From Bacteroidaceae bacterium (GTDB lineage Bacteria > Bacteroidota > Bacteroidia > Bacteroidales > Bacteroidaceae), in the NCBI GenBank assembly GCA_016291905.1, contig JAEEZS010000067.1:7926-71925 (forward strand): a stretch of DNA of 64,000 nt, read 5' to 3'. A program made the translations under genes and the position numbers. Shown here one piece after another: positions 35,155-59,765 of the stretch. The notes beneath the pieces were generated by a model, which did no database searches, was not told where the DNA came from, and worked only from the letters and a program-made list of their open reading frames with translations. Positions within the stretch are counted from its first letter, which is position 1, and the number at the start of each line of letters is the position of its first letter.

Positions 35155-35162
35155 CAAAGATA
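35155..35162 (-). promoter_or_regulatory. -7 promoter box TATCTTTG for rfbB
   Basis: The minus strand reads CCTTGCACTATCTTTGTACCC about 50 nt upstream of the rfbB ATG. The same cassette occurs at 40750-40775. Confidence 0.55.
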
Positions 35163-35368
35163 GTGCAAGGCGAGCGAAAAACCAAATATATTTGAGTTTT
35201 TCCGAGCCGCAGCCTATCTAAAAGCCTCCGAAGGAGGATTAAAGATAGTGAACCGAGCGAAAAACCAAATATATTTGGATTTTTCCGAGCCGCAGCCTAT
35301 CTAAAAGCCTCCGAAGGAGGATTAAAGATAGTGAACCGAGCGAAAAACCAAATATATTTGGATTTTTG
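35156..35368. repeat. About 84-bp tandem repeat (about 2.5 copies), each with a promoter-like cassette plus a cUUCGg/GAAG hairpin
   Basis: aaagatagtg recurs at 35156, 35241 and 35324. The units share ...gagcgaaaaaccaaatatatttgg(a/t)tttttccgagccgcagcctatctaaaagcctccgaaggaggattaaagatagtg. Confidence 0.85.
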
Positions 35369-35418
35369 AGGAATAAACTATTATTTTGACATTTTTTGGA
35401 ACTATCGAAAAATCTAAG

Positions 35419-35426
35419 TATATTTG
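35419..35426 (+). promoter_or_regulatory. -7 promoter box TATATTTG at the start of AT-rich island 1
   Basis: It matches TAnnTTTG about 100 nt upstream of the 35527 ATG. Confidence 0.4.
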
Positions 35427-35526
35427 CCGAGGAAAAGAAAACCCCAACCACTCGATATACGTATACAGCCTTTTGACGGCATCAAAAGAATGCTTTCCTT
35501 TGCAGAAAAAAGAAACACGATGGATT

Positions 35527-35784
35527 ATGGATGAAATACTAGTAGAACAAATCAGGTGCTTGAATCAGATTAGTGCGTGGGAAACCTTTGGAATGCACGC
35601 TGTTGCCGTGGTGAGCAAAGGCAATCCAGGCGAGTATGAGAACAACCCGACAGTTATTGAATATCAGGCAAAAGGCTACGAACTGGTTGATGCCAATATG
35701 TTTGGTCAGGGAGGAGAGACAGGCGAGATCTTGATATTCAATAAAGTCGAGGATGGGGATGTTAAGAGAGGATGGGGATGTTAA
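35527..35784 (+). CDS. Hypothetical small protein (85 aa)
   Basis: This is the ORF 35386-35784 trimmed to the first ATG downstream of the predicted promoter (MDEILVEQIRCLNQ...). No recognisable motif. Confidence 0.45.
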   Translation: MDEILVEQIRCLNQISAWETFGMHAVAVVSKGNPGEYENNPTVIEYQAKGYELVDANMFGQGGETGEILIFNKVEDGDVKRGWGC

Positions 35785-36617
35785 GAAATGACGGGTCGGA
35801 AAGAACGAAGTTGTTAAAAGAACAAAGCATGAACGAAGCAACGGATTTCCATTTTCAAAGCATTTTCAAGGTTAAGCGATATTATTATTGCCATTATAAC
35901 ATAAAGAAATGCCATTGGCCGGAGTTCAAACTATATTCGCCAGATTCGATATACTTTCAAACACTGGCAGAAGCGGAGGAATACGTACAACGCTTCTCCC
36001 AGTACTCCTGTCGCGATACATACGCATTTGTCGTCACTGAGTTGCCTTTAGGGTTTCAACTTAGGGATCGTATTTCCGAAGATTACTTTTCCGAACGAAT
36101 CTATCTTCCTGACGGTACTTTGTGGGGCGTAAACGACTATGCTGATATCATGCAAACGTGGACTCCTCTTTCAGTAGATGAAGCAGAGCTGGGGCATTAT
36201 TTGGGAAAGAAACGGATGTTTCATGGGCGCACACCCGAAGAAATCCGGTTCAAGCCAGGAGATATTGTAGAGGTGTTCTGTTATCCGGGAAACAGCTTCT
36301 GGGGCGATGATTACGTGAGTCTTGCCATTGTTGTTCAGACACCTCCCCCTGTGGATGAGGTGGCCAGAATGAGAGAAGATTACATGGCAACCCACAGCGA
36401 CTATGATCTTTCCGACCATAGTTTGGGCTATGAATTTGGAAGCCACCTTGACTGCTATATTGTCATACCCTATAATTTTGGCGACACCGACTATTCTCCG
36501 ACAATTGCAACAATGAGGCCATCATTGCCAATCTCAACCAGAAGGAAGAATTTGCTTATAAGCCAGTACGAACAATACCTTGCGGGAGAACTGAAACCAA
36601 AAGAAATCAACCAATGA
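35772..36617 (+). CDS. Hypothetical protein (281 aa; alternative start MNEATDF at 35829)
   Basis: Long ORF in the AT-rich island with no recognisable motif. Its 5' end lies inside a 19-bp tandem duplication, so the 35829 start may be the real one. Confidence 0.55.
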   Translation: MGMLRNDGSERTKLLKEQSMNEATDFHFQSIFKVKRYYYCHYNIKKCHWPEFKLYSPDSIYFQTLAEAEEYVQRFSQYSCRDTYAFVVTELPLGFQLRDRISEDYFSERIYLPDGTLWGVNDYADIMQTWTPLSVDEAELGHYLGKKRMFHGRTPEEIRFKPGDIVEVFCYPGNSFWGDDYVSLAIVVQTPPPVDEVARMREDYMATHSDYDLSDHSLGYEFGSHLDCYIVIPYNFGDTDYSPTIATMRPSLPISTRRKNLLISQYEQYLAGELKPKEINQ

Positions 36618-36673
36618 GACATTAAATAAAAATATTAGATAAGATTATTTTGGAAAGAAGGAAACAGAGTAGT

Positions 36674-37471
36674 ATGTTAGTGGAAGGCGTTCAATATAAT
36701 GAAAAGGAGGACTCCTTTACCTTTAATTTCCTAAATGATTCGAAACAGGATATTATCAAATTAACAAATCACGGACTACATAAGAGTGAGTTATATAATA
36801 AATGTTTCTTTTTCAAATATCAGTTTGATCCTGACGTGAGCAAGCCAATTAGGTCAAAGTATATTGAATATATTAAATTTCATGAGAATATGAAGGACAA
36901 TGATATTTCAACCTTCATTAAAAGGGCTGTTAATTCACTGGATAGCACTATCAATCTAAGAGGATACAATACCGTCGTTTATCCACAATCCATGTCAGAG
37001 ATTAATAGAGAAATGCTTTCGTATTTGAGGATGTTTGGCTATCCTGAATTCATCCCATTTGAACTTGCAAAGATTCCTCCATCTGAGATAGTATTTGATT
37101 ATGACTCATACAAACGTGAGGTTTTGGATTCCACACATCAAATCGGGAATAGGGTGTTTCCCAAATACACAGAAGAACAAAAACGTGAAAAACTCTCGGA
37201 TATAGAGAAAATGATGGACGAATTGAGGAAAAAGGATTATTTCACAATTGGTAATGATTCGAAAGTAAAATACCGCAATTATCTACATAATATTTTCCGT
37301 TTCAACAATGAAGAAGAACGGATGGCGTTTGAAAAACTAACCAAACCTAAAGTACTCATCATTGATGATGTTAAAACAAGTGGTGCGTCACTAAATTTCG
37401 TTATTGATACTTTATATAAGGTTAATCCGTCTGTGACGGTTGTAGTGTTTTCATTAATTGGAAAAGACTAG
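36674..37471 (+). CDS. ComF-like phosphoribosyltransferase-domain protein
   Basis: The C-terminal PRPP-binding loop VLIIDDVKTSGASL matches the type I PRTase motif (hydrophobic x4-DD-x-x-T/S-G-x-T/S). The ORF-track start is TTG at 36650; the first ATG is at 36674. Confidence 0.6.
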   Translation: MLVEGVQYNEKEDSFTFNFLNDSKQDIIKLTNHGLHKSELYNKCFFFKYQFDPDVSKPIRSKYIEYIKFHENMKDNDISTFIKRAVNSLDSTINLRGYNTVVYPQSMSEINREMLSYLRMFGYPEFIPFELAKIPPSEIVFDYDSYKREVLDSTHQIGNRVFPKYTEEQKREKLSDIEKMMDELRKKDYFTIGNDSKVKYRNYLHNIFRFNNEEERMAFEKLTKPKVLIIDDVKTSGASLNFVIDTLYKVNPSVTVVVFSLIGKD

Positions 37472-37520
37472 TAAATTTGAATTTAGGGGTATTTTTGCGG
37501 ATAATCATAATAAAGTGCTT

Positions 37521-37991
37521 ATGCCAAAGAAAGTGACAAAATTAACAGAGGACGAATTGGAAGATGTTGTTAAGGAATCTTTCAAAAGAGTCCATGACGA
37601 ATATGCCGTTGCTTTGAACGATGAAAACGGTAATAGGACTATTGGGAGGAACATAATCAACGAAATGGCAAGATTGAACAAGAAAGATGGCCCACAATCA
37701 CCTTTTCCTTCTGATAAGTACAAAATTTGGGTTCAAGGCGATAATTCACCCCACAAACCACCGCACATGCACATAAATTACCCGCAAGAAGGTTGGCAAA
37801 TCAAGGTTTATATTGAGAATGGAGAACTGTGGAGCGTTGTAAGTTATGGTAATAGGGGAAGAAATGACACATTTTCTGATGTTATAAATTGGGTCAAAAA
37901 ATGGTTTGAAATGCCCACCACAATGCCAGGACGTGTCGGAACAAATCAACAAGCAGCATTGAACGAATGGGATGCTTGTAATAATGATTAA
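37521..37991 (+). CDS. Hypothetical protein with a DUF4160-like C-terminal region
   Basis: SPHKPPHMHINYPQEGWQIKVYIENGEL resembles the H-x-PPH-x-H core of DUF4160. The ORF-track start is TTG at 37458; the first ATG is at 37521. Confidence 0.45.
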   Translation: MPKKVTKLTEDELEDVVKESFKRVHDEYAVALNDENGNRTIGRNIINEMARLNKKDGPQSPFPSDKYKIWVQGDNSPHKPPHMHINYPQEGWQIKVYIENGELWSVVSYGNRGRNDTFSDVINWVKKWFEMPTTMPGRVGTNQQAALNEWDACNND

Positions 37992-38108
37992 GCTGTGTTT
38001 TTTTCATACAGTTTTAACCCACCTATTCAGGATAATCTGCAATATCATTGCCTAAATATTTGCTTATTTGAAATAGTTTCATTAATTTTGCCACCAAATA
38101 TAGTGCAT

Positions 38109-38531
38109 ATGTATAGGAATGTTTTATTTGGCGATTATTTTCACTTGGGCTTTTCATTACCTCGATATGTTGACCTTCTAAAGCTTATTAGGCCTAAATC
38201 GTTCATAATGGTAGATAACGATGGTATTAAAGGATATATGTTATTGAAAAAAGGAAAGATGAAATTGCAAAATTACAACAATAGTAATGAAACATTACAT
38301 TTTCTTAGGATTTATGACCAAACAAATTTCGAAATATACCAAATAATATCGTTGTTTCAAAAAGAAGATAATGATGTCATTTATAATATCTTTGATAGAG
38401 TATTAGCTAAACTGAATAATGGAGATTACTTGTGGGGCAAAGCATATAATTCTTCCGACCATTATATATATCAAAAATTAGGCTTTATAAAACTAAGTGA
38501 CAAAATATATGGCTATCAGTATACATTATAA
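38109..38531 (+). CDS. Hypothetical protein (weak GNAT-like C-terminus)
   Basis: The ATG at 38109 is preceded by a TAATTTTG box at 38083-38090. Only the tail (IYQKLGFIKL) is reminiscent of acetyltransferases, and no Q/RxxGxG/A motif was seen. Confidence 0.4.
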   Translation: MYRNVLFGDYFHLGFSLPRYVDLLKLIRPKSFIMVDNDGIKGYMLLKKGKMKLQNYNNSNETLHFLRIYDQTNFEIYQIISLFQKEDNDVIYNIFDRVLAKLNNGDYLWGKAYNSSDHYIYQKLGFIKLSDKIYGYQYTL

Positions 38532-38997
38532 AGATGAGTAACCAAATCAATGAGTGCTCATTTCTTATAGTTATTTATGCCAAGTGCTATATTATTGCCA
38601 AAAAATATGGGATAAAATGATGGCATATTATAAAATGCTGGTCACTAACCTCAAATGTTTTTAGCTTTGGTATTGCAGTTCCAGATTTTATTAGTATATT
38701 TGCACAGAATATAGCGTGACGCAGCGAGCAGGTATTCCAGACGGGATTACTCTCTATGACTATGATTAAGAGTCGATTATTGAAAAAAGACCCCGGCTTT
38801 CAAATAAGAGAATGTGATTCAATGCGTTGAGATGGAGAAGGCAAAACAGGTTGTTCTATAGACTGTTGAGGTGCCGAAAACTACGGGACAGATGGCGCGG
38901 TCGGTTTCTGGCTGGCATTCAGCGTCATAAGGGATAGAATGGGAAGACTGCGTTTTCGTAAGGCTTTCATTCACTATCAGTTATTAAGCAGATTTGC

Positions 38998-39241
38998 AAA
39001 GGTGTCAAAGTGTCAAGGTGTCATGGTGTCATTTTGGGTTATGGGGTTTGGGCGTAGGCCGGACGGATGGGGAGGGGGAGACTGTAAGAAAATCCGAAGG
39101 AATATATTATAAATTATTATATATATTATTTAATTATATATTATAATTTATTATAATATATAATTAAGGCTTCTCCCGAAGGTGCATGCGGAATGCTTCA
39201 CCGAAAATGACACCATGACACTTTGACACTTTGACACCTTT
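38998..39241. repeat. Structured element: 38-bp inverted repeat built from 8-bp GTGTCA(A/T) iterons around an AT-rich quasi-palindromic core
   Basis: The left arm aaaggtgtcaaagtgtcaaggtgtcatggtgtcatttt (38998-39035) pairs with the right arm aaaatgacaccatgacactttgacactttgacaccttt (39204-39241) with one mismatch. The core at 39103-39168 consists entirely of A and T. Confidence 0.85.
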
Positions 39242-39628
39242 TTCACTCGGCTGGAAGTCAGCGACTTACAAAGGATGCTAAGGGCTAACTCACACTGGCA
39301 GACGTTGTTACGCACAGGAGGCGGGCAAGGGCGTTTTCAGGGGTAAGACGGCTGCTCCCCATACCCTCACCCTGCCCAGAATCCCACTGCGCTGTACTGA
39401 CAGCCCAGTGGACTGGGCGCACGACGCAGTGCGTTAGCGATTTATTCCAGTGGGCTTATCGGAGGGGAATTGGGCGTCTTGCCCTGGCGTAAATGAGGGA
39501 ATACTGGCATGGCGCAAATGAAGGAAATAGGACAGGGCAAACCGAGCGAAAAGGCAATTCTATGGGAGATTTGGTTAAAAAAGCCCTCTTATATTGGGTG
39601 AGGATTTCGGGATTTTCAAAAAAGTGTG

Positions 39629-39636
39629 TAATTTTG
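39629..39636 (+). promoter_or_regulatory. -7 promoter box TAATTTTG
   Basis: It lies 35 nt upstream of the 39671 ATG. Confidence 0.5.
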
Positions 39637-39670
39637 CAGCGAGAGAATGCTTGTCGTTAAAGTAGAAAAA

Positions 39671-49581: not shown

Positions 49582-49665
49582 GGAGTATAATTCAATCTGT
49601 ATTTGCGTGAATAAAAAAAGAATCATTACCTTTACATTTAATATCACATTTAAAAAACTACAATT

Positions 49666-50304
49666 ATGCAAACGAAAAAGACAAAACGAATTTTCAACCT
49701 GATTATCGTCGATGAAAGCGGATCGATGTCCGTTATACGCAAGCAAGCTTTCGCTGGGATGAACGAGACGCTACAAACCATTAGGAAAATGCAGGAGAAG
49801 TATCCCAATCAAACGCAGCTGGTTACTCTGGTCACCTTTGATAGCGACCATTTCACTTGGCATTATGACAACACACCAGCTTCCGACACAAATGATTTGA
49901 AATGGAAAGACTATAATCCAGGTGGATGCACGCCTCTATACGATGCTATTGGAAAATCCGTCTCAAAAGTAAATGCGCAGATTGACGAAGATGACAACGT
50001 GCTTGTAACTATCATCACGGATGGCGAAGAGAACAGTTCCATAGAGTGGACACTCAAAATGGTTCGCACCCTGATTGAGAAACTAAAGAAACAACATTGG
50101 ACTTTTACACTCATCGGAACAGACAATCTGGATGTAGAGACTATGGCTCGCGGTTTTGCGATAGACGAGCATTTAAAGTTCCAGCAAGACGAAGAAGGAA
50201 CAAAAGCTATGTTCGCTCGCGAACGTCGTAGCCGCGAACGATACAACTGCAGTATTGAGGAAGACATACCACTTCCATCAGGCTCGTTCTTCGAAGAAGA
50301 ATAA
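49666..50304 (+). CDS. von Willebrand factor A (vWA) domain protein with a complete MIDAS motif
   Basis: The motifs IIVDESGSMS (DxSxS), GGCTPLYDAIG (Thr) and IITDGEENSS (Asp) are all present. 212 aa, no signal peptide. Confidence 0.8.
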   Translation: MQTKKTKRIFNLIIVDESGSMSVIRKQAFAGMNETLQTIRKMQEKYPNQTQLVTLVTFDSDHFTWHYDNTPASDTNDLKWKDYNPGGCTPLYDAIGKSVSKVNAQIDEDDNVLVTIITDGEENSSIEWTLKMVRTLIEKLKKQHWTFTLIGTDNLDVETMARGFAIDEHLKFQQDEEGTKAMFARERRSRERYNCSIEEDIPLPSGSFFEEE

Positions 50305-50490
50305 ACAGTATTATCTCAAAGGGACTTTCTTGGCTCAGCTTATCCAAGTCCCTTTGTTTTTCAAAAAAGTCATAGCCTATTTTTTTATTTATCAAATAAT
50401 CCTTAACTTTGTTCCGCAATAAGGAAAAGGAAAGTTATTCTACATTTTTCTTTAATAAGTAAAGAGTGTAATCATTAAAAGGAAGATACC

Positions 50491-51867
50491 ATGAGTGTAT
50501 GTGTTTATTTTAAGACAGAGAAGCAATTAGAGCCTAAAGAAATATTCAAGGCTGTTGCTGATAAAGGAGAGCAGATAATGGTTGTATCATCTGAGTTTCC
50601 AAGTTTGAAATTCGGCAGGATGTATGCAGCTTTGAGGGGCTTGGAAGTAAATCAAGAGGAAGAAGGATTTGAAATCAGAATATGTGCAAACGCTTCCAGA
50701 GAGGATTATCGGCTGTATCCTGTGGTTATAGATGTAATGAACGAGTTAACATCGATAAAAGCTAAAAATGAAGACGATGAGGACATTAATAACCCATATG
50801 AAATATTCAATGATGAATGGATCGACGACCAGATGAAGGCAGATAGAAATGTCACTTGCGCTTTAATAAGATCTTCTGGCGCGTCAATTACATATAACGG
50901 AATGTTCTCGGACTTTTGTCTTGGTTTTCACATCATGAACGGGTTCGAAGTGGATATCAAGAACCCAGATGAATCTAAATATAACGGACTGCTGGAGTAT
51001 CTGGTTAGTGTTCAATGGATGTTGAAAGATAAAAAGGATACAAGCTCTAGGATTTTGATTCAGAATCCTAATGATAAAGAAGAGACGAGGAGCGTGTCTT
51101 TAATCTCCATTAAGAATAACCAACTTGACAAATTTGACTATATCTCACATGCTTCTTTGTTTTGTATAATGAATCAAGATACCGGAGAAGTGGCTATAAT
51201 GCCTTTTGAGCATCTTCCCAAAATAGTGAGAAGCAAGAGCCTTAAAATCATCGATGAATTTTCTTTTTTCAAAGATGGCAGGTTGATGGTCAATAGCGTT
51301 AAGGAAATGATGACATTGGCCAAGCGATATCAGCCACGCGACTTGTTCTATAGGCCTACTTTCCCAGGTAGTGGCTATGACAAAAAACAGCATACCTTTA
51401 TCCTGAAATGGAACCCAGCCATTTCCAGCGTAAAGATGGAAGACCATCTGGAAGGATTACGCAACATTTGGGTAGATGATTTTAACTGGAGTGTATATGA
51501 ATGGGAGAAAGCCGAAATGGGCGATCGCTTCTATCTTGTTAGGGTAGGTGAAGGTAACACAGGAATCGTTATGTCTGGTGTGTTTAGCTCACAACCTTAT
51601 GTTTTAGATGATTGGAGTGGTAGGGGTCGAACTGTTTATTATATGGAGATGAAGCCTAATGTTATCATTGATCCTGATAGAGCTCCAATGATTACAACGA
51701 AGGAATTAGACGAAGCCATTCCTGATTTTACATGGAATGGTGGTCATTCTGGCCACATGCTTACCGATGACCAAGCAATGAAACTGGAGAAACTCTTCGC
51801 GAAATATTTCAAGAAGATTGAGGATAAAGATGATGGCGAAACAATCAACGTGCTTCATCGTTTTTAA
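50491..51867 (+). CDS. Hypothetical 458-aa protein with a C-terminal PUA-like (EVE/ASCH-like) region
   Basis: The N-terminal ~310 aa show no recognisable motif. The C-terminus HTFILKWNPAISS...FNWSVYEWEKAEMGDRFYLVRVGEGNTGIVMSGVFSSQPY resembles the EVE/PUA pattern (W.lK.NP..w...W.v.....GD.f.ly....GIvg.g.v.s.py). A TAACTTTG box lies about 80 nt upstream. Confidence 0.6.
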   Translation: MSVCVYFKTEKQLEPKEIFKAVADKGEQIMVVSSEFPSLKFGRMYAALRGLEVNQEEEGFEIRICANASREDYRLYPVVIDVMNELTSIKAKNEDDEDINNPYEIFNDEWIDDQMKADRNVTCALIRSSGASITYNGMFSDFCLGFHIMNGFEVDIKNPDESKYNGLLEYLVSVQWMLKDKKDTSSRILIQNPNDKEETRSVSLISIKNNQLDKFDYISHASLFCIMNQDTGEVAIMPFEHLPKIVRSKSLKIIDEFSFFKDGRLMVNSVKEMMTLAKRYQPRDLFYRPTFPGSGYDKKQHTFILKWNPAISSVKMEDHLEGLRNIWVDDFNWSVYEWEKAEMGDRFYLVRVGEGNTGIVMSGVFSSQPYVLDDWSGRGRTVYYMEMKPNVIIDPDRAPMITTKELDEAIPDFTWNGGHSGHMLTDDQAMKLEKLFAKYFKKIEDKDDGETINVLHRF

Positions 51868-51872
51868 TTCTT

Positions 51873-52841
51873 ATGTTAGGAGCGATAATTGGTGATATCG
51901 TAGGGAGCCGATGGGAGTTCAATCCTACCAACGACTACAACTTTGAGCTGTTCTCAGACGAGAACGACTTTACCGACGACACCATCTGTACGGTTGCTGT
52001 GGCTGATGCGTTGTTGAAAGGGCGTGACTTTGGCCAGAGCATCCACGACTGGTGCCGACGCTATCCTCATCCGATGGGCGGATATGGATGCTCGTTTGTC
52101 GGATGGGTTCAAAGCGATAATCCCCAACCCTATGGCAGCTATGGTAACGGGGCAGCCATGAGGGTTAGCCCTGTGGCACATTGGTACGAGGAAGTCGGTC
52201 AGGTCCTTGATGCTGCAGCTGCAACAGCCCTTCCATCCCACAACCACGAAGAGGCTATCAAGGGCGCGCAGACGGTGGCATTAGCCATCTTCAAGGCTCT
52301 TGAGTACAAGAGATACCGAGAAGCTGCTTTGCACATCGACGAAATCCTCGCCGAGTGCGTACAGTTCTCCGGCTACGATATAAACATGCCAAAAGCCTCC
52401 GTCCTGAACAAGTTCGACGAAACCTGTCAGGGAACCGTGCCTGTCGCTTTGAAGATTATCAGCATGGCTACCTGTTTTGAGGATGCCGTGCGTCTGGCTG
52501 TCAGCCTTGGTGCCGATGCCGACACGTTAGGAGCCATCACAGGCAGCATCGCCGAGGCAATCTGGGGCATACCGTCAAAGTTGCGAAGGCCGTTTGAAAA
52601 GTTCCTGCCTGACGACATGCTGTCTGTCCTGAATGAGTTCCATCAAGCACGTCCTCGTTCTTTCATTCCCCTCATCGATACCTGTTTTTCGGGCGATGAT
52701 TTTAGCGATGTTTGTTGGGAAATCCTTTATGACGTGGATGGCAAAGAGGGCTACGACAAGATAAAGAGCAAGACGATGAGCGAGCATGAACAGAAACGCA
52801 TGCTGATGGCAGCACGCGCCAAAGCGAGGGAGGTTTGGTAA
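51873..52841 (+). CDS. ADP-ribosylglycohydrolase (ARH/DraG-family) protein
   Basis: The N-terminus MLGAIIGDIVGSRWEF, and GNGAAMRVSP and GADADTLGAITGSIAEA, are hallmark ARH motifs. It starts 5 nt after the preceding gene. Confidence 0.85.
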   Translation: MLGAIIGDIVGSRWEFNPTNDYNFELFSDENDFTDDTICTVAVADALLKGRDFGQSIHDWCRRYPHPMGGYGCSFVGWVQSDNPQPYGSYGNGAAMRVSPVAHWYEEVGQVLDAAAATALPSHNHEEAIKGAQTVALAIFKALEYKRYREAALHIDEILAECVQFSGYDINMPKASVLNKFDETCQGTVPVALKIISMATCFEDAVRLAVSLGADADTLGAITGSIAEAIWGIPSKLRRPFEKFLPDDMLSVLNEFHQARPRSFIPLIDTCFSGDDFSDVCWEILYDVDGKEGYDKIKSKTMSEHEQKRMLMAARAKAREVW

Positions 52842-52884
52842 AAGTATCTTTCATGATTGTTTTGAAAAAAACAAAAAAATGAGT

Positions 52885-52892
52885 TATCTTTG
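52885..52892 (+). promoter_or_regulatory. -7 promoter box TATCTTTG
   Basis: It lies 31 nt upstream of the 52923 ATG. Confidence 0.55.
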
Positions 52893-52922
52893 CATCGAAA
52901 TAATAAAACATAGTCAAATATC

Positions 52923-54632
52923 ATGAGTAAAATAACAGGAAAGGAATATCCCATTTGCGATATTTTCACTTATAAGTTTGAGTATCACATACCTAGTTAT
53001 CAACGTCCTTATGCATGGGAAAAAGAACAAGCTGAAACTTTGTTCGATGATTTATTGGATTTCTACAAGAATCAGCCTAAAGATGACAATTATTTCTTGG
53101 GAAGTATTGTTCTTATCAAGGAAGACGATGAAAACAAACCTTATTCAGACGTGATAGATGGACAGCAGAGATTGACCTCGTTGACAATTCTTCTCTCAGT
53201 AATAGCATCTGTAATAGAAGATGTAAAATTGAGAACAAAGGTCGAAAAATATCTTTATGAGGATGGAGACGAACTAATTGGATTGGCACCTCAACCAAGG
53301 CTCTTTCTTAGACCAAAAGAAAGGGACTTTTTCAAAGATTTCATACAGGATGTGCAAATAGATAAACTGCTCTCATTAAAACCAGATAGCCCAGTTTTTG
53401 ATACGGAAGCCAAAAAGCACATCAGAATCAATTGTCAGGCTTTTAAGGATAGATTAGAGCAGAATTTTGTGCCGGAAAGTGATGATTTCAAGAAATTTGT
53501 TAGTTTTATACTTAAGCGCTGTTATCTAATATCAGTAATGACACCCAGTCAGACTTCCGCCTTCAGAGTGTTTTCTGTTATGAATAGTCGGGGATTGGAT
53601 TTGTTGCCGATTGATATTTTTAAAGCGGATATTATTGGAGAAATTCCTTCTGGTCTTCAGAATTATTATACCCAAAAATGGGAAGATATGGAGAATGATT
53701 TGTCCCGTCAGGGATTCAACGAATTGTTTGTCCATATTAGAATGATTTATGCTAAAGAGAAACTTCGCGAGGAACTTGTTACCAATTTTAAGAAAACGGT
53801 AATATCACAAATAAGTAAATCGGAAGATTTTATCGACAAAGTCCTGTTTCCTTATTGTAAGGCTTTTAATACAATCCGAAAATGTGACTATTCTTCAACG
53901 TCTGATACAGCTAAGCAAATAAATGAAATGTTTAAATGGCTTAACAAAGGATTTAACTATGACTGGATTCCTGCTACATTAAAGTTCATGCTTAGTTATG
54001 GAAACGATTCAAATTACCTGCTGTGGTTTCTTAAAAAAATGGAACGGCTTGCTACGTGTTTAATGGCAACGGGTCAGGATGTCAACAAGCGTATAAACCG
54101 ATATGTCCAAATTCTAAATGAGTTGGAGAATAGAACTAACCATAGTCTATCTTCGCCTTTGGTTTCAATTGAACTTACTGAAGAAGAGAAAGCCTTATTT
54201 ATTGACGTCTTGAGTAAAGATATTTATAATATGACATCAAGATATAGGAATTACATTATTCAACGTCTTGACTCTTTTGTCTCAGATGGAGCTGCCACAT
54301 ATGATGAAAAAGTATTTACGATAGAACACGTTTTACCACAGACCGTCAATCCTGATTCTCAATGGGCTCATCTTTGGCCAGACGAAGCAAAAAGAACCTT
54401 TTGGTTGCACAAAATTGCCAATCTTGTTCCTCTTGCTCGTAGAATTAATTCTGCTGCTCAGAACTACGACTTTGATGAGAAAAAAGAAAAATATTTCACT
54501 AATTCTAGAACAGGTACATCCTCATATAATCTTACTACTCAAGTATTATCCATTCCTGTTTGGACTGAAGAGGTCGTAGAACAACGTCAAAACAATTTGA
54601 TAAACGTTTTCAAAGCAAATTGGGAATTATAA
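52923..54632 (+). CDS. GmrSD-like type IV restriction enzyme (DUF262 + DUF1524)
   Basis: The N-terminal DUF262 motifs are IPSYQRPYAWEKEQAETLFDDL and DGQQRLTSL. The C-terminal DUF1524 His-Me finger motifs are TIEHVLPQ and IANLVPLARRINSAAQNYDF. Confidence 0.85.
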   Translation: MSKITGKEYPICDIFTYKFEYHIPSYQRPYAWEKEQAETLFDDLLDFYKNQPKDDNYFLGSIVLIKEDDENKPYSDVIDGQQRLTSLTILLSVIASVIEDVKLRTKVEKYLYEDGDELIGLAPQPRLFLRPKERDFFKDFIQDVQIDKLLSLKPDSPVFDTEAKKHIRINCQAFKDRLEQNFVPESDDFKKFVSFILKRCYLISVMTPSQTSAFRVFSVMNSRGLDLLPIDIFKADIIGEIPSGLQNYYTQKWEDMENDLSRQGFNELFVHIRMIYAKEKLREELVTNFKKTVISQISKSEDFIDKVLFPYCKAFNTIRKCDYSSTSDTAKQINEMFKWLNKGFNYDWIPATLKFMLSYGNDSNYLLWFLKKMERLATCLMATGQDVNKRINRYVQILNELENRTNHSLSSPLVSIELTEEEKALFIDVLSKDIYNMTSRYRNYIIQRLDSFVSDGAATYDEKVFTIEHVLPQTVNPDSQWAHLWPDEAKRTFWLHKIANLVPLARRINSAAQNYDFDEKKEKYFTNSRTGTSSYNLTTQVLSIPVWTEEVVEQRQNNLINVFKANWEL

Positions 54633-54730
54633 TTCCGATTGCTGCAAAAAACCAAAAAAGAATCTCTGGGAGAGAGACGATAAAAAATGTATAAAATGTA
54701 AAAGTATTGGGAAAATAAAAAAAATCTATA

Positions 54731-54825
54731 TATATTTGCACCCGATAAGAGTGGCAACCGATGCACTTGTGGTTCTGAGCGAGGAATGAGTAGGTTGTCG
54801 CTCTTATTCTTAATATAGTTTTTAT
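54731..54825 (+). ncRNA. Candidate small structured RNA (orphan promoter + 15-bp stem + U-run)
   Basis: A TATATTTG box lies at 54731-54738. AUAAGAGUGGCAACC (54745-54759) pairs with GGUUGUCGCUCUUAU (54793-54807) as 13 Watson-Crick and 2 G-U pairs. T5 occupies 54819-54823. There is no ORF. Confidence 0.3.
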
Positions 54826-55058
54826 CTTCGTGATAGACCAGCAAATCAAAATATTGCTGGAATTATAAGACATTAGGCTTCATGATGAAATAAATTTTAG
54901 GCGGTAGCCAGTCAAAGAATACTATATCTTGTGGACAAATACATCTCAGATGAGGCAAGGGCTAAAGGAGAAGAGCTGATGAGAAAGTATGACGTTTATT
55001 ATCCGATAATAAGGCGTAGGATATGTTAGGGGAAAGGCTTTCAAATAATCCGCCCGGA

Positions 55059-55125
55059 CGGATTTTGACACTTGGAAAATGATTTTGACCAAATGACCAA
55101 ATGACCAAATGACCGCACGCGAATC
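55059..55125. repeat. 67-bp direct repeat, copy 1 (solo arm of the GGTCATTT-iteron element)
   Basis: cggattttgacacttggaaaatgattttgaccaaatgaccaaatgaccaaatgaccgcacgcgaatc. It is identical to 55756-55822 apart from 2 mismatches. Confidence 0.85.
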
Positions 55126-55287: not shown

Positions 55288-55530
55288 CTACAGTTTCTCT
55301 TTGTCAGCCTCAAAGAAACAATTATAATCGGCATTATCACGCATGATAACCAAATCGGAGAACAAAGCGCCATCTTCCTTCGAGAAGAGTCCACTCTTGA
55401 CATAATGCTCACCAAACAATGCCATTACACCCCGATGGCTTTTCACATTGTGGCCATCGCTTATCAGCAATGCTGGCCACCTGCCGGATGCTGTCTATAA
55501 CCTTTGTTCCTTCCATAAATCTATATCTCT
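55288..55530 (-). pseudogene. Decayed HEPN-domain (toxin-antitoxin type) gene remnant
   Basis: The 60-aa ORF ...LLISDGHNVKSHRGVMALFGEHYVKSGLFSKEDGALFSDLVIMRDNADYN matches the C-terminal two-thirds of HEPN proteins (KSHxGxxxxF...R..ADY). The N-terminal part is in another frame or behind a stop, and there is no MNT partner gene. Confidence 0.5.
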
Positions 55531-55655: not shown

Positions 55656-55822
55656 GGTCAAAGTGGTCATTTGGTCATTTGGTCATTTGTCATTTTCGTT
55701 TTCTGATTCGGTCATTTGCTCACTATATATAAATATAATATTTATTATATAGTGGCGGATTTTGACTCTTGGAAAACGATTTTGACCAAATGACCAAATG
55801 ACCAAATGACCGCACGCGAATC
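55656..55822. repeat. Structured element: inverted arms of (GGTCATTT)3-4 iterons around an AT-only palindromic core; the right arm lies within the 67-bp direct repeat copy 2 (55756-55822)
   Basis: Left arm ggtcaaagtggtcatttggtcatttggtcatttgtcatttt (55656-55696). Core cactatatataaatataatatttattatatagtg (55721-55754). Right arm ...gattttgaccaaatgaccaaatgaccaaatgacc (55773-55811). Confidence 0.85.
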
Positions 55823-56206
55823 AAAAAATCGGGCTCTAGTGCGATGTCATAACTTTTGGGGGTTTGATGTTTGATTACGACAAAGGTATCGGCTATTGGA
55901 GAAAAGCAAAGAATTATTGATGGAAGTTTGTGTTTCTAACATTTTCGATGGCACTATGCTCGTAGCGTTAAGGGCTGTGCCGACAGCGTTTAACTTTGTG
56001 CTCGTAGCGTTAAGGGCTGTGCCGACAGCCCATTGGGCTATAACAGTTCATAGTTCATAATTCATAGTTCATAATTCTTAGTTCATCCCACATTTGGACA
56101 AAAACTGAAAACAACCTACGCAAAAAAACGAGCGAGTTGCCGAAAATTACCCCAACGAAACGATGCAAAAACCAGAAAACCGTTTGGCGGGGTGGGATTG
56201 TTTTTG

Positions 56207-57367: not shown

Positions 57368-57416
57368 TTAAGAGTCGTTTGTTGGTTAAGAATTAAGAGT
57401 TAAGAGTTAAGAAAAA

Positions 57417-57457
57417 ATGTCCCGTTTGCAGTACACCGCTTACGGGGCATTTTTTTC
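57417..57457 (+). terminator. Rho-independent terminator after the peptidase gene
   Basis: atgtcccg ... cggggcat stem (one G-U pair) followed by T7. Confidence 0.7.
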
Positions 57458-57576
57458 TTCATTCTTCATTTTTCATTGTGCGAAGCGCGACATTTTGTCA
57501 GCCGGCGGGGGAGTGGCAGACTTTTTGCACACGGTGGTTTGTGGAAATGAACAACCAAACAAATCGACATAGCACT

Positions 57577-59630: not shown

Positions 59631-59758
59631 AGTTAGGAGTTAAGAATTAAGAGTTATGAAAAATAGTTGGGAAACGGGATTGTCCGCCGGCGACAGAGGG
59701 AAAAAGGGATGTCGCATATAAAGCATTTTCTCTTAACTCTTAACTCTTAATTCTTAAC
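59631..59758. repeat. Inverted repeat of TTAAGAG-type words between convergent htpG and the DUF2007 gene
   Basis: gttaagaattaagagtta (59638-59655) pairs with taactcttaattcttaac (59740-59757), a perfect 18-bp match. The same 28-nt word string also occurs at 57386-57413. Confidence 0.8.
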
Positions 59759-59765
59759 TAAAAAA

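Follow-up and report, generated by a model that had tools for sequence, protein, structure and literature searches.

Opposed iteron arrays around A/T-only cores in a Bacteroidaceae genome resemble origins of self-loading helicase initiators

Anatomy of the E1 iteron palindrome

The stretch of 64,000 nt analysed here (contig JAEEZS010000067.1; referred to below as the window) derives from a Prevotella-like Bacteroidaceae metagenome genome, as indicated by the source names and by its DUF5715, SBF and fimbrial Mfa genes. Its backbone exhibits a G+C content of 56-62 % across roughly 25-64 kb, compared with ~45-50 % in the left 24 kb, which corresponds to the fimbrial locus. The present analysis concerns a 242-bp iteron palindrome, designated here as E1 (38999-39240), which is located in the middle of the divergent intergenic region between rfbB and SBF, together with a second element, E2 (55656-55822), and a solo half-copy of the latter. 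The gap that contains E1 (38532-39646) had been described as free of open reading frames (ORFs) in an initial annotation of this DNA, and was indeed found to hold only mechanical ORFs of at most 57 aa each. E1 is composed of the following parts:

38999-39036, plus strand: left arm, with GTGTCA hexamers at 39002, 39010, 39018 and 39026 and the inner boundary GTCATTTTGG
39037-39100, no strand: left inner spacer, G-rich (ggatggggagggggag) with ccgaagg at its end; it has no mirror on the right side and diverges freely among relatives
39101-39167, no strand: A/T-only quasi-palindromic core of 67 nt, a candidate DNA-unwinding region
39168-39202, no strand: right inner spacer, which holds the second ccgaagg word
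39203-39240, minus strand: right arm, with TGACAC hexamers at 39208, 39216, 39224 and 39232; mirror of the left arm with one mismatch

Comparison of the two 38-nt arms confirmed the earlier description of them as reverse complements with a single mismatch, which is located in the third unit (AAGG versus AAAG), each arm being made up of four 8-bp units (GGTGTCAA / AGTGTCAA / GGTGTCAT / GGTGTCAT) that all contain the hexamer GTGTCA. The arms enclose the G-rich run, the two ccgaagg words and the A/T-only run that had been reported, although the enclosed interval measures 166 nt rather than ~168 nt, and the A/T-only run was found to span the 67 nt listed above rather than 66 nt at 39103-39168, a discrepancy of 1-2 nt. 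The paired word GTGTCA-N2-GTGTCA was matched six times in the window, in each case within E1, compared with 0.43 expected matches, and a count of six was reached in none of 100 shuffles. When folded as single-stranded DNA, E1 attained -63.4 kcal/mol (z = -13.5 versus shuffles). E1 is a real, non-random feature of this DNA.

Several candidate identities for E1 were rejected. Rfam searches with gathering and E-value thresholds returned tRNAs plus one chance match to a microRNA precursor (20 bits versus a gathering score of 200), while no terminator-like sites indicative of an intrinsic terminator were detected and a promoter/terminator scan did not rise above shuffles. BLAST comparison of E1 with plasmids and phages yielded no match. 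An inverton was likewise rejected, as the interior was shown to be in the identical orientation in all five contigs that extend across the two arms (L001, L002, L273, L275 and L276, loci being cited here by L number; L003 starts within the left arm and is not among these five), and Pfam detected no recombinase in the window.

Age of E1 relative to the adjacent island

The window holds two A/T-rich islands, the second of which looks like a defence island:

~35354-38757: island 1, five plus-strand ORFs that are poorly characterised, one being a weak ShosT/PRTase match
49656-55058: island 2, with WYL, HIRAN (PADLOC candidate PDC-M03B), VWA, ADP-ribosylglycohydrolase and GmrSD genes

Three relatives are without island 1, two of them being ~97-98 % identical to the window (L273 and L275) and one ~89-93 % (L276). 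In these relatives, rfbB and SBF are separated by 1.3 kb, compared with 4.5 kb in the window, and homology to the window extends up to ~35201 plus one 83-bp repeat unit and resumes from 38758. These breaks place island 1 at roughly the interval given above, inserted ~240 bp to the left of E1. Since alignment located E1 at the same rfbB-SBF locus in all three island-free relatives, E1 predates island 1, did not bring the island in and is no marker of the mobile end of island 1. The role in island acquisition that the initial annotation had proposed is consequently lost for E1, the presence of the element at the same locus in island-free relatives being an observation that the annotation itself had named as contrary to its proposal. 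The other such observation that it had named, ubiquity in the manner of REP-like repeats, was not made: the window holds 2.5 copies in 64 kb, and ~94 kb of relatives contained no copy besides the E1 orthologue, on which grounds E1 and E2 were rejected as ubiquitous repetitive extragenic palindromic (REP) sequences or bacterial interspersed mosaic elements (BIMEs). No empty E1 site was found in the distant SBF homologues P0046, P0032 and P0076, in which synteny is lost.

At the left junction of island 1, an 83-bp tandem repeat is present in 2.5 copies (35156-35367), each copy with a gcctccgaaggaggat hairpin. This repeat is represented by a single copy in the island-free relatives, indicating that its duplication coincides with the insertion of island 1.

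Constraint on the E1 hexamers

Comparison of the window with L276 (~90 % identical) revealed that none of the 48 positions in the eight hexamers had changed, compared with 13 of the 28 other arm positions (Fisher p = 2.5e-7, positions being counted as independent) and 71 of 289 flank positions (p = 5e-6, counted likewise); in the inner non-A/T spacers, taken together, 38 of 100 positions differed. The E1 hexamers are identical in L273 and L276. The A/T core was shown to undergo insertions and deletions, being 17 nt shorter in L273 and longer in L276, and to be A/T-only throughout. The hexamers are thus the constrained unit of E1, as expected of a protein recognition word.

The arms were also observed to change in concert, as both arms of L276 share an identical 1-nt deletion (resulting in 7-bp spacing) and identical outer substitutions, while the arms of L273 represent a perfect repeat. 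Arm symmetry is therefore also preserved, and this may result from selection for pairing or from repair by template switching or gene conversion, as known for quasi-palindromes.

E2, its solo half-copy and the end of island 2

The presence at 55656-55822 of a second element with a different word, as previously annotated, was confirmed, although the earlier description had missed a solo copy of its right arm at 55059-55125. The parts of both are as follows:

55059-55125, minus strand: solo E2 right half of 67 nt, comprising single iteron, array and tail; 65 of 67 positions are identical to 55756-55822 (two mismatches)
55656-55700, plus strand: E2 left arm, three GGTCATTT units with degenerate flanking units; its end, GTCATTTTCG, is the same as in E1
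55709-55720, plus strand: single core-proximal iteron cGGTCATTTgct, mirrored by a single iteron at 55757-55769 (ggattttgactct)
55721-55754, no strand: E2 core CACTATATATAAATATAATATTTATTATATAGTG, with an A/T-only run of 28 nt; L157 and L161, from another Bacteroidales metagenome-assembled genome (MAG), have homologous cores
55780-55822, minus strand: E2 right arm, with TGAC at 55783, 55791, 55799 and 55807 and a conserved 11-nt tail, gcacgcgaatc

E2 thus consists of three to four GGTCATTT units, with the hexamer word GGTCAT, inverted about the A/T run within a core of the form CACTATATA...TATATAGTG. The 16-mer of E2 was matched six times in the window, compared with 0.09 expected. The isolated iteron beside the core is not confined to E2, as it was also found in related elements of other genomes.

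The homology between the solo copy and E2 extends from precisely the core/arm boundary to a point 11 nt past the last iteron; island 2 abuts the solo copy at this boundary, and the intact E2 lies ~530 bp beyond the solo arm. In L273 and L275, island 2 has the WYL and HIRAN genes and a 69-aa ORF in common with the window, whereas from 49656 on their cargo is not the same: these relatives have a 370-aa gene where the window has VWA and the genes that follow it. The island 2 region is a variable, defence-like hotspot. A remnant arm paired with a full element, similar to the solo arm with E2, was also observed in L210 (2565-2585). The end of island 2 at the core boundary, the difference in cargo and the pairing in L210 are compatible with a break or recombination event at the midpoint of a long A/T palindrome, and the position at which island 2 ends hints at such an event. 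Centres of this kind are fragile, for example through SbcCD-type hairpin cleavage. If breakage at the palindrome centre did occur, such sites would be places where foreign DNA accumulates. As regards relatives on the E2 side, exact-protein look-ups returned the same strain only, and an 83 %-identical homologue was found without synteny.

Between the solo arm and E2, a 60-aa ORF (55288-55470, minus strand) was found to match the C-terminal half of a HEPN domain below the Pfam cut-off (E = 0.15, 12.7 bits), and may represent a decayed toxin gene. To the right of E2, short tandem repeat clusters are present at 55964-56029 and 56045-56086, and also around the genes that follow (57385-57477 and 59633-59759). 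These comprise a 21-bp unit in three copies, AGTTCAT in six copies and TTAAGAA-type 7-mers, some of the 7-mer arrays being mutually inverted.

Pfam matches of the neighbouring genes in the window include a transporter, a dehydratase, defence genes and fimbriae. Searches of the 64-kb window with Pfam, and with tblastn using primase-helicases, detected no integrase, transposase, relaxase, Rep, primase or helicase-type initiator.

A Bacteroidales family with a variable iteron word

A scan of genome contigs for four GTGTCA units listed at least 120 places, mostly unrelated arrays from many phyla. Among the matches listed, full elements of the E1 design were identified in four Bacteroidales MAGs, i.e. 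L157 and L161 (both from one MAG), L176 (rumen), L260, and L210 (horse faeces), and in a Clostridium MAG (L248). The outer part of their common plan consists of an outer (G)GGTGTCA followed by three to five phased units and by an inner GTCAAACTC or GTCATTTTC, while the inner part consists of ~20-30 nt, often with one isolated iteron, followed by the A/T palindrome; element size in the family ranges from ~155 to 242 bp. Across the Bacteroidales copies GTGTCA is invariant, whereas the 2-nt spacers vary. The cores of L157 and L161, CACTATATA-(A/T)n-TATATAGTG, correspond to that of E2, despite the different word of the latter. Because core and plan are shared while the word differs, E1, E2 and the Bacteroidales elements constitute one family with a variable iteron word. 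This family of iteron palindromes is previously uncurated.

Solo arms were observed in L203, L166 and L190, in addition to the remnant in L210. All-against-all ORF comparison revealed no neighbour genes shared across the Bacteroidales loci, the neighbours including type I restriction-modification genes (L176 and L190), a YhcG nuclease gene (L161), ribH (L260) and unknowns. No consistent direct repeat that would represent a target-site duplication was found at any of eight elements.

On contig JAEDEY010000025.1, a solo right arm (L166:323-352) and a solo left arm (L203:275-315) of the GTGTCA type are separated by 16 kb and arranged in 'outward' order, and the DNA between them encodes ordinary housekeeping functions and polysaccharide utilization loci. 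The GTGTCA-N2 arrays of at least four units at the 120 or more places listed derive, among others, from Omnitrophota, Chloroflexota, Nitrospirota, Planctomycetota, Streptomyces and cyanobacteria, often with several per MAG, and most of them are one-sided and intergenic.

The same design beside replication genes elsewhere

Arrays of comparable design were identified next to replication genes on viral and other metagenomic contigs. In the viral contigs L032 and L051, TGACAAAA arrays adjoin homologous ~815-aa proteins that match PHROGs DNA-primase families. In L126, GTGTCACC follows the gene for a PriCT_2-VapE/DUF5906 protein on a contig of 5.6 kb, in which a serine recombinase gene is present as well, and the GGTGTCACC arrays of L126, L287 and L288 employ the same hexamer as E1. 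Homologues of the L126 protein measure 750-870 aa (BT4734-like_N, PriCT_2 and VapE domains) and are mostly encoded on contigs of 4.2-6.5 kb, which suggests that these contigs are small circular replicons.

In a survey of 80 metagenomic primase-helicase loci, the region directly downstream of the stop codon was shown to contain, typically, iterons with a word particular to the replicon, which point in both directions about a centre that is A/T-rich or consists of alternating purines and pyrimidines. The commonest downstream 7-mer was present at least twice per orientation in 51 of the 69 loci on which this count was performed, and the word varied by replicon. For example, ACAGATAA arrays start ~30 bp past the stop of the BT4734_N-PriCT_2-VapE protein in L351 and L355 (A/T runs of 31 and 29 nt, respectively), GGTTGTA arrays are located ~25 bp past the stop in L318-320, and GTAGTCA (L322) and TAGTCAC with 8-bp phasing (L337) are arranged likewise, as are the arrays of L360, L363 and L287/L288. 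In L473, opposed GTGTCAC arrays are situated between a DUF3987 protein and a Toprim/zinc-ribbon primase, with an integrase and an actin-like partition protein adjoining. The BT4734_N-PriCT_2-VapE replicons look like a large family, in which every member has an iteron word of its own immediately behind the helicase gene. Many of the corresponding contigs (L287-L366 and L126) originate from freshwater lakes, and several carry a second, superfamily 2 (SF2) helicase gene downstream.

Other searches delimited this picture. The VapE-encoding integrated elements of Muribaculaceae (L371-L379) were rejected as a match, since only a short CTTACCC hairpin is present downstream. The core motif CACTATATA-N-TATATAGTG was likewise set aside as a guide to viral contigs, where it returned 90 loci that are mostly unrelated A/T palindromes; L419 and L385, which adjoin a capsid gene, are the only ones among these that resemble the design. 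Scrambled-hexamer controls with the same phasing returned 15 and 21 viral loci, compared with 31 for GTGTCA, indicating that GTGTCA arrays as such are not special, and a generic scan for four GTCA-N4 units gave at least 120 matches, mostly unrelated 8-bp arrays. The scan with the scrambled word TCGTGA also yielded opposed arrays 30-50 bp apart in two viral contigs of 4-6 kb (L489 and L503). The opposed-array design seems to be general and word-independent.

Direct arrays were encountered in two plasmids. On pPAL8-04, a (GCTCATTT) x8 array is located 17 bp after parA-parG, while on the Leuconostoc rolling-circle plasmid pCI411 (L471, 1218-1246) the iterons GGTCATTTGGTCATTTGGTCAAAATGG are located beside the nick hairpin, upstream of cop-rep, and correspond almost exactly to the right arm of E2 (window 55780-55811). 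This likeness could be a coincidence, or could reflect a DNA-binding specificity common across phyla. BLAST comparison of E2 and L161 with plasmids and phages returned short iteron-array matches only.

E1 and E2 as candidate orphan origin-type sites

Opposed arrays with an A/T core between them, within a span of ~150-250 bp, point to a theta-type, helicase-loading origin. By analogy with such systems, E1, together with E2 and its half-copy, may represent an orphan origin-type site for a self-loading helicase initiator, a reading that is considered the most likely one and given a little less than an even chance. Two opposed arrays of four GTGTCA iterons with 8-bp phasing flank an easily melted A/T core, in the layout of plasmids, phage satellites and phages with a self-loading primase-helicase initiator. 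In such a mechanism, the DNA-binding domains of the initiator would read the iterons and two helicase rings would assemble, one at either side of the A/T region, which would then melt. Because no cognate initiator is encoded nearby, the initiator would have to act in trans, supplied by a mobile element with matching iteron specificity; alternatively, the site may be a relic, its hexamers being maintained for another reason. We infer binding of a helicase-type initiator at E1, with local replication, titration or, in the case of a relic, nothing as its consequence.

This reading is favoured because it explains the anatomy, the hexamer constraint, the diversity of words alongside a conserved plan and core, and the association with primases and helicases elsewhere. 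In particular, retention of the plan (and of the E2 core) while the word differs is the pattern expected of initiator-iteron co-variation, and the opposite of that of a transposon family with conserved ends. The initial annotation had likewise proposed that phased iterons about an A/T core form a protein-bound origin, and this part of its proposal finds backing in the primase and helicase neighbours elsewhere and in the published description of staphylococcal island origins considered below.

Several observations weigh against an origin. Adjacency to rep, a hallmark of the staphylococcal type, fails for E1, as tblastn and Pfam detected no primase, helicase or Rep gene in the 64 kb, nor in the 8-kb loci fetched around the Bacteroidales chromosomal copies. 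E1 has been inherited at one chromosomal locus down to ~90 % identity, which is unusual for the origin of a mobile element, and the several orphan copies with the same word per genome are equally compatible with self-propagation. Arrays of 8-bp units are not diagnostic on their own, given their other uses on pPAL8-04 and pCI411. Protein binding does not call for the arm spacers to change in concert, a behaviour that may reflect a hairpin or cruciform function, or simply template-switch repair. Moreover, any homogenisation among the tandem and inverted copies would make the 48 hexamer positions non-independent and the p-values given above overstated; the spacers of the same units were, however, not homogenised, so that the contrast between hexamers and spacers stands.

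The unusual part of E1 and E2, as origin-type sites, is their orphan, chromosomally fixed and constrained state. A more specific proposal, considered quite improbable, is that they are chromosomal orphan origins under selection for their effect when a plasmid, phage or satellite with a matching initiator enters the cell. They might then titrate or 'handcuff' the initiator, i.e. iteron incompatibility as immunity, or fire in situ and thereby amplify adjacent defence islands or feed lateral transduction, and their siting at variable defence hotspots would be functional. If the arms are initiator sites, they would represent origins that exist apart from replication genes, fixed in place and under selection in gut Bacteroidales. 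They would also imply traffic in trans that links chromosomes to small primase-helicase replicons, in the form of hitch-hiking, local amplification or decoy immunity. Moreover, the origins of ~5-6 kb replicons, a class that is large and barely described, could then be located from a simple sequence signature.

Alternative explanations

An explanation other than those named in this text is accorded a modest probability. Among the named alternatives, a non-autonomous palindromic element similar to a miniature inverted-repeat transposable element (MITE), the arms of which would provide multiple sites for a transposase or recombinase acting in trans and the copies of which would be old insertions, is regarded as unlikely. 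Such an element would account for the small size (~155-242 bp), the lack of coding capacity, the intergenic position and the terminal inverted arms (38 nt with one mismatch in E1), for the existence of at least two to three copies with the same hexamer per MAG (L157 and L161; L260, L203 and L166), for the solo arms and tandem half-copies (55059-55125; L210:2565-2585; L203; L166) and for the lack of neighbour proteins common to the loci; large surveys have, in addition, reported many MITEs in Bacteroidota and Prevotella that are shared with phages. Conversely, a target-site duplication was found at none of the eight elements and no insertion polymorphism was seen, E1 being present in all three relatives, while no transposase is encoded nearby. 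Copies within a genome are diverged rather than near-identical, their density is low (only the E1 orthologue in the ~94 kb of relatives), and the arm word differs while the core is conserved (E2 versus L157/L161), which is the reverse of the usual pattern. Among the loci fetched from the matches listed, no autonomous element with corresponding ends and a transposase was seen. If the elements nevertheless constitute an unusual repeat family without target-site duplications, their arms would represent a novel class of target, with multiple sites for a recombinase or transposase.

E1 could also serve as a binding array for a host or mobile-element protein that is not an initiator, i.e. a centromere-like site for a ribbon-helix-helix protein such as those of the type of ParG, omega or MetJ, a site with operator or insulator function in the promoter region of the divergent rfbB and SBF genes, or a boundary beside A/T-rich foreign DNA. 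This is judged improbable. Ribbon-helix-helix arrays such as MetJ metboxes and ParG boxes typically consist of 7-8-bp phased repeats, a property shared by the 8-bp phasing of E1 and by the array beside parA-parG on pPAL8-04, and an operator would agree with the location of E1 between divergent genes, its conservation with the locus and the constraint on its hexamers. However, known ParG-type centromeres and operators adjoin par or regulator genes, whereas no par or ribbon-helix-helix gene is adjacent here; opposed arrays ~170 bp apart around a 67-nt A/T-only core would be needless for an operator; and the unrelated contexts of the family (upstream of hsdM, by ribH and by yhcG) argue against a locus-specific regulator.

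A rolling-circle double-strand origin or oriT-like site, at which iteron binding by an HUH Rep or relaxase would lead to a nick in the A/T hairpin and allow neighbouring DNA to be mobilised, is very improbable: oriT was among the proposals of the initial annotation and the right arm of E2 resembles the iterons beside the pCI411 nick hairpin, but that match comprises 29 nt of simple repeat and may be due to chance, the nick motifs TACTACG/A, TAATATTAC, TAGTATTAC and CTTGATA are absent in or near E1 and E2, known origins of this kind have one-sided iterons rather than symmetric 4+4 arrays, and no Rep, relaxase or Mob gene is present in the window.

Comparison with known systems

ParG-type (type Ib) centromeres and operators and the 'bind' iterons of pMV158-family double-strand origins resemble E1 and E2 in their tandem 8-bp units, the pCI411 unit GGTCATTT being that of E2. 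These arrays are, however, direct and one-sided, and lie by parFG or by a nick hairpin and rep, neither of which contexts applies to E1 or E2. MITEs and palindromic repeats (Correia, RUP, ERIC and REP/BIME) share with E1 and E2 a small, non-coding, intergenic nature, inverted termini and a presence in several copies per genome, some of which are occasionally half-copies. E1 and E2 are set apart from them by the lack of a target-site duplication, a low copy number, no insertion polymorphism having been seen, arms built of phased iterons, and a word that varies while the core is shared.

Phage P4 possesses octamer type I iterons in both orientations at ori and crr, which are recognised by the alpha primase-helicase. 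In P4, unlike in E1 and E2, these constitute two separate regions and alpha is encoded in cis.

The origins of the BT4734_N-PriCT_2-VapE replicons and related viral contigs (L351, L318, L126/L287, L322, L337 and L473), for which no curated literature description was found, are similar in that they comprise opposed arrays of two to five iterons of 7-10 bp, with an A/T-rich or alternating purine-pyrimidine centre, over 120-250 bp; L126, L287 and L473 even use GTGTCAC, which contains the E1 hexamer. These origins differ in being located 0-30 bp after the helicase gene or within the replication module, and the replicons are mostly ~5-6 kb in size, probably circular and from freshwater, whereas E1 and E2 are chromosomal, orphan and of gut or rumen provenance.

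The origins of Staphylococcus aureus pathogenicity islands (SaPIs) contain 6-12 penta- or hexanucleotide iterons just downstream of rep, around an A/T-rich centre, half of the iterons (at least two) being located on each side in opposite directions (PMC9371898). Recognition of these iterons falls to the winged-helix domain of a self-loading helicase, one hexamer of which is thought to be loaded per side (PMC9371898). E1 and E2 differ from this type in that a SaPI origin lies directly downstream of its own rep on an excisable island, whereas no initiator is encoded in the 64 kb around E1 and E2, in the strict 8-bp phasing of E1 and its almost perfect 38-nt inverted repeat, and in that the host of E1 belongs to the Bacteroidota rather than being a staphylococcus. 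The likeness extends to hexanucleotide iterons (4+4 in E1 versus a total of 6-12 in SaPIs) on opposed sides with an element-specific word, and to a central A/T region (67 nt in E1 and 28 nt in E2). The earlier statement that no named element class fits was thus too strong, as iteron origins of SaPIs and other phage-inducible chromosomal islands (PICIs) do fit the anatomy, and the SaPI/PICI-type origin of self-loading helicases is the known kind to which E1 and E2 come closest.

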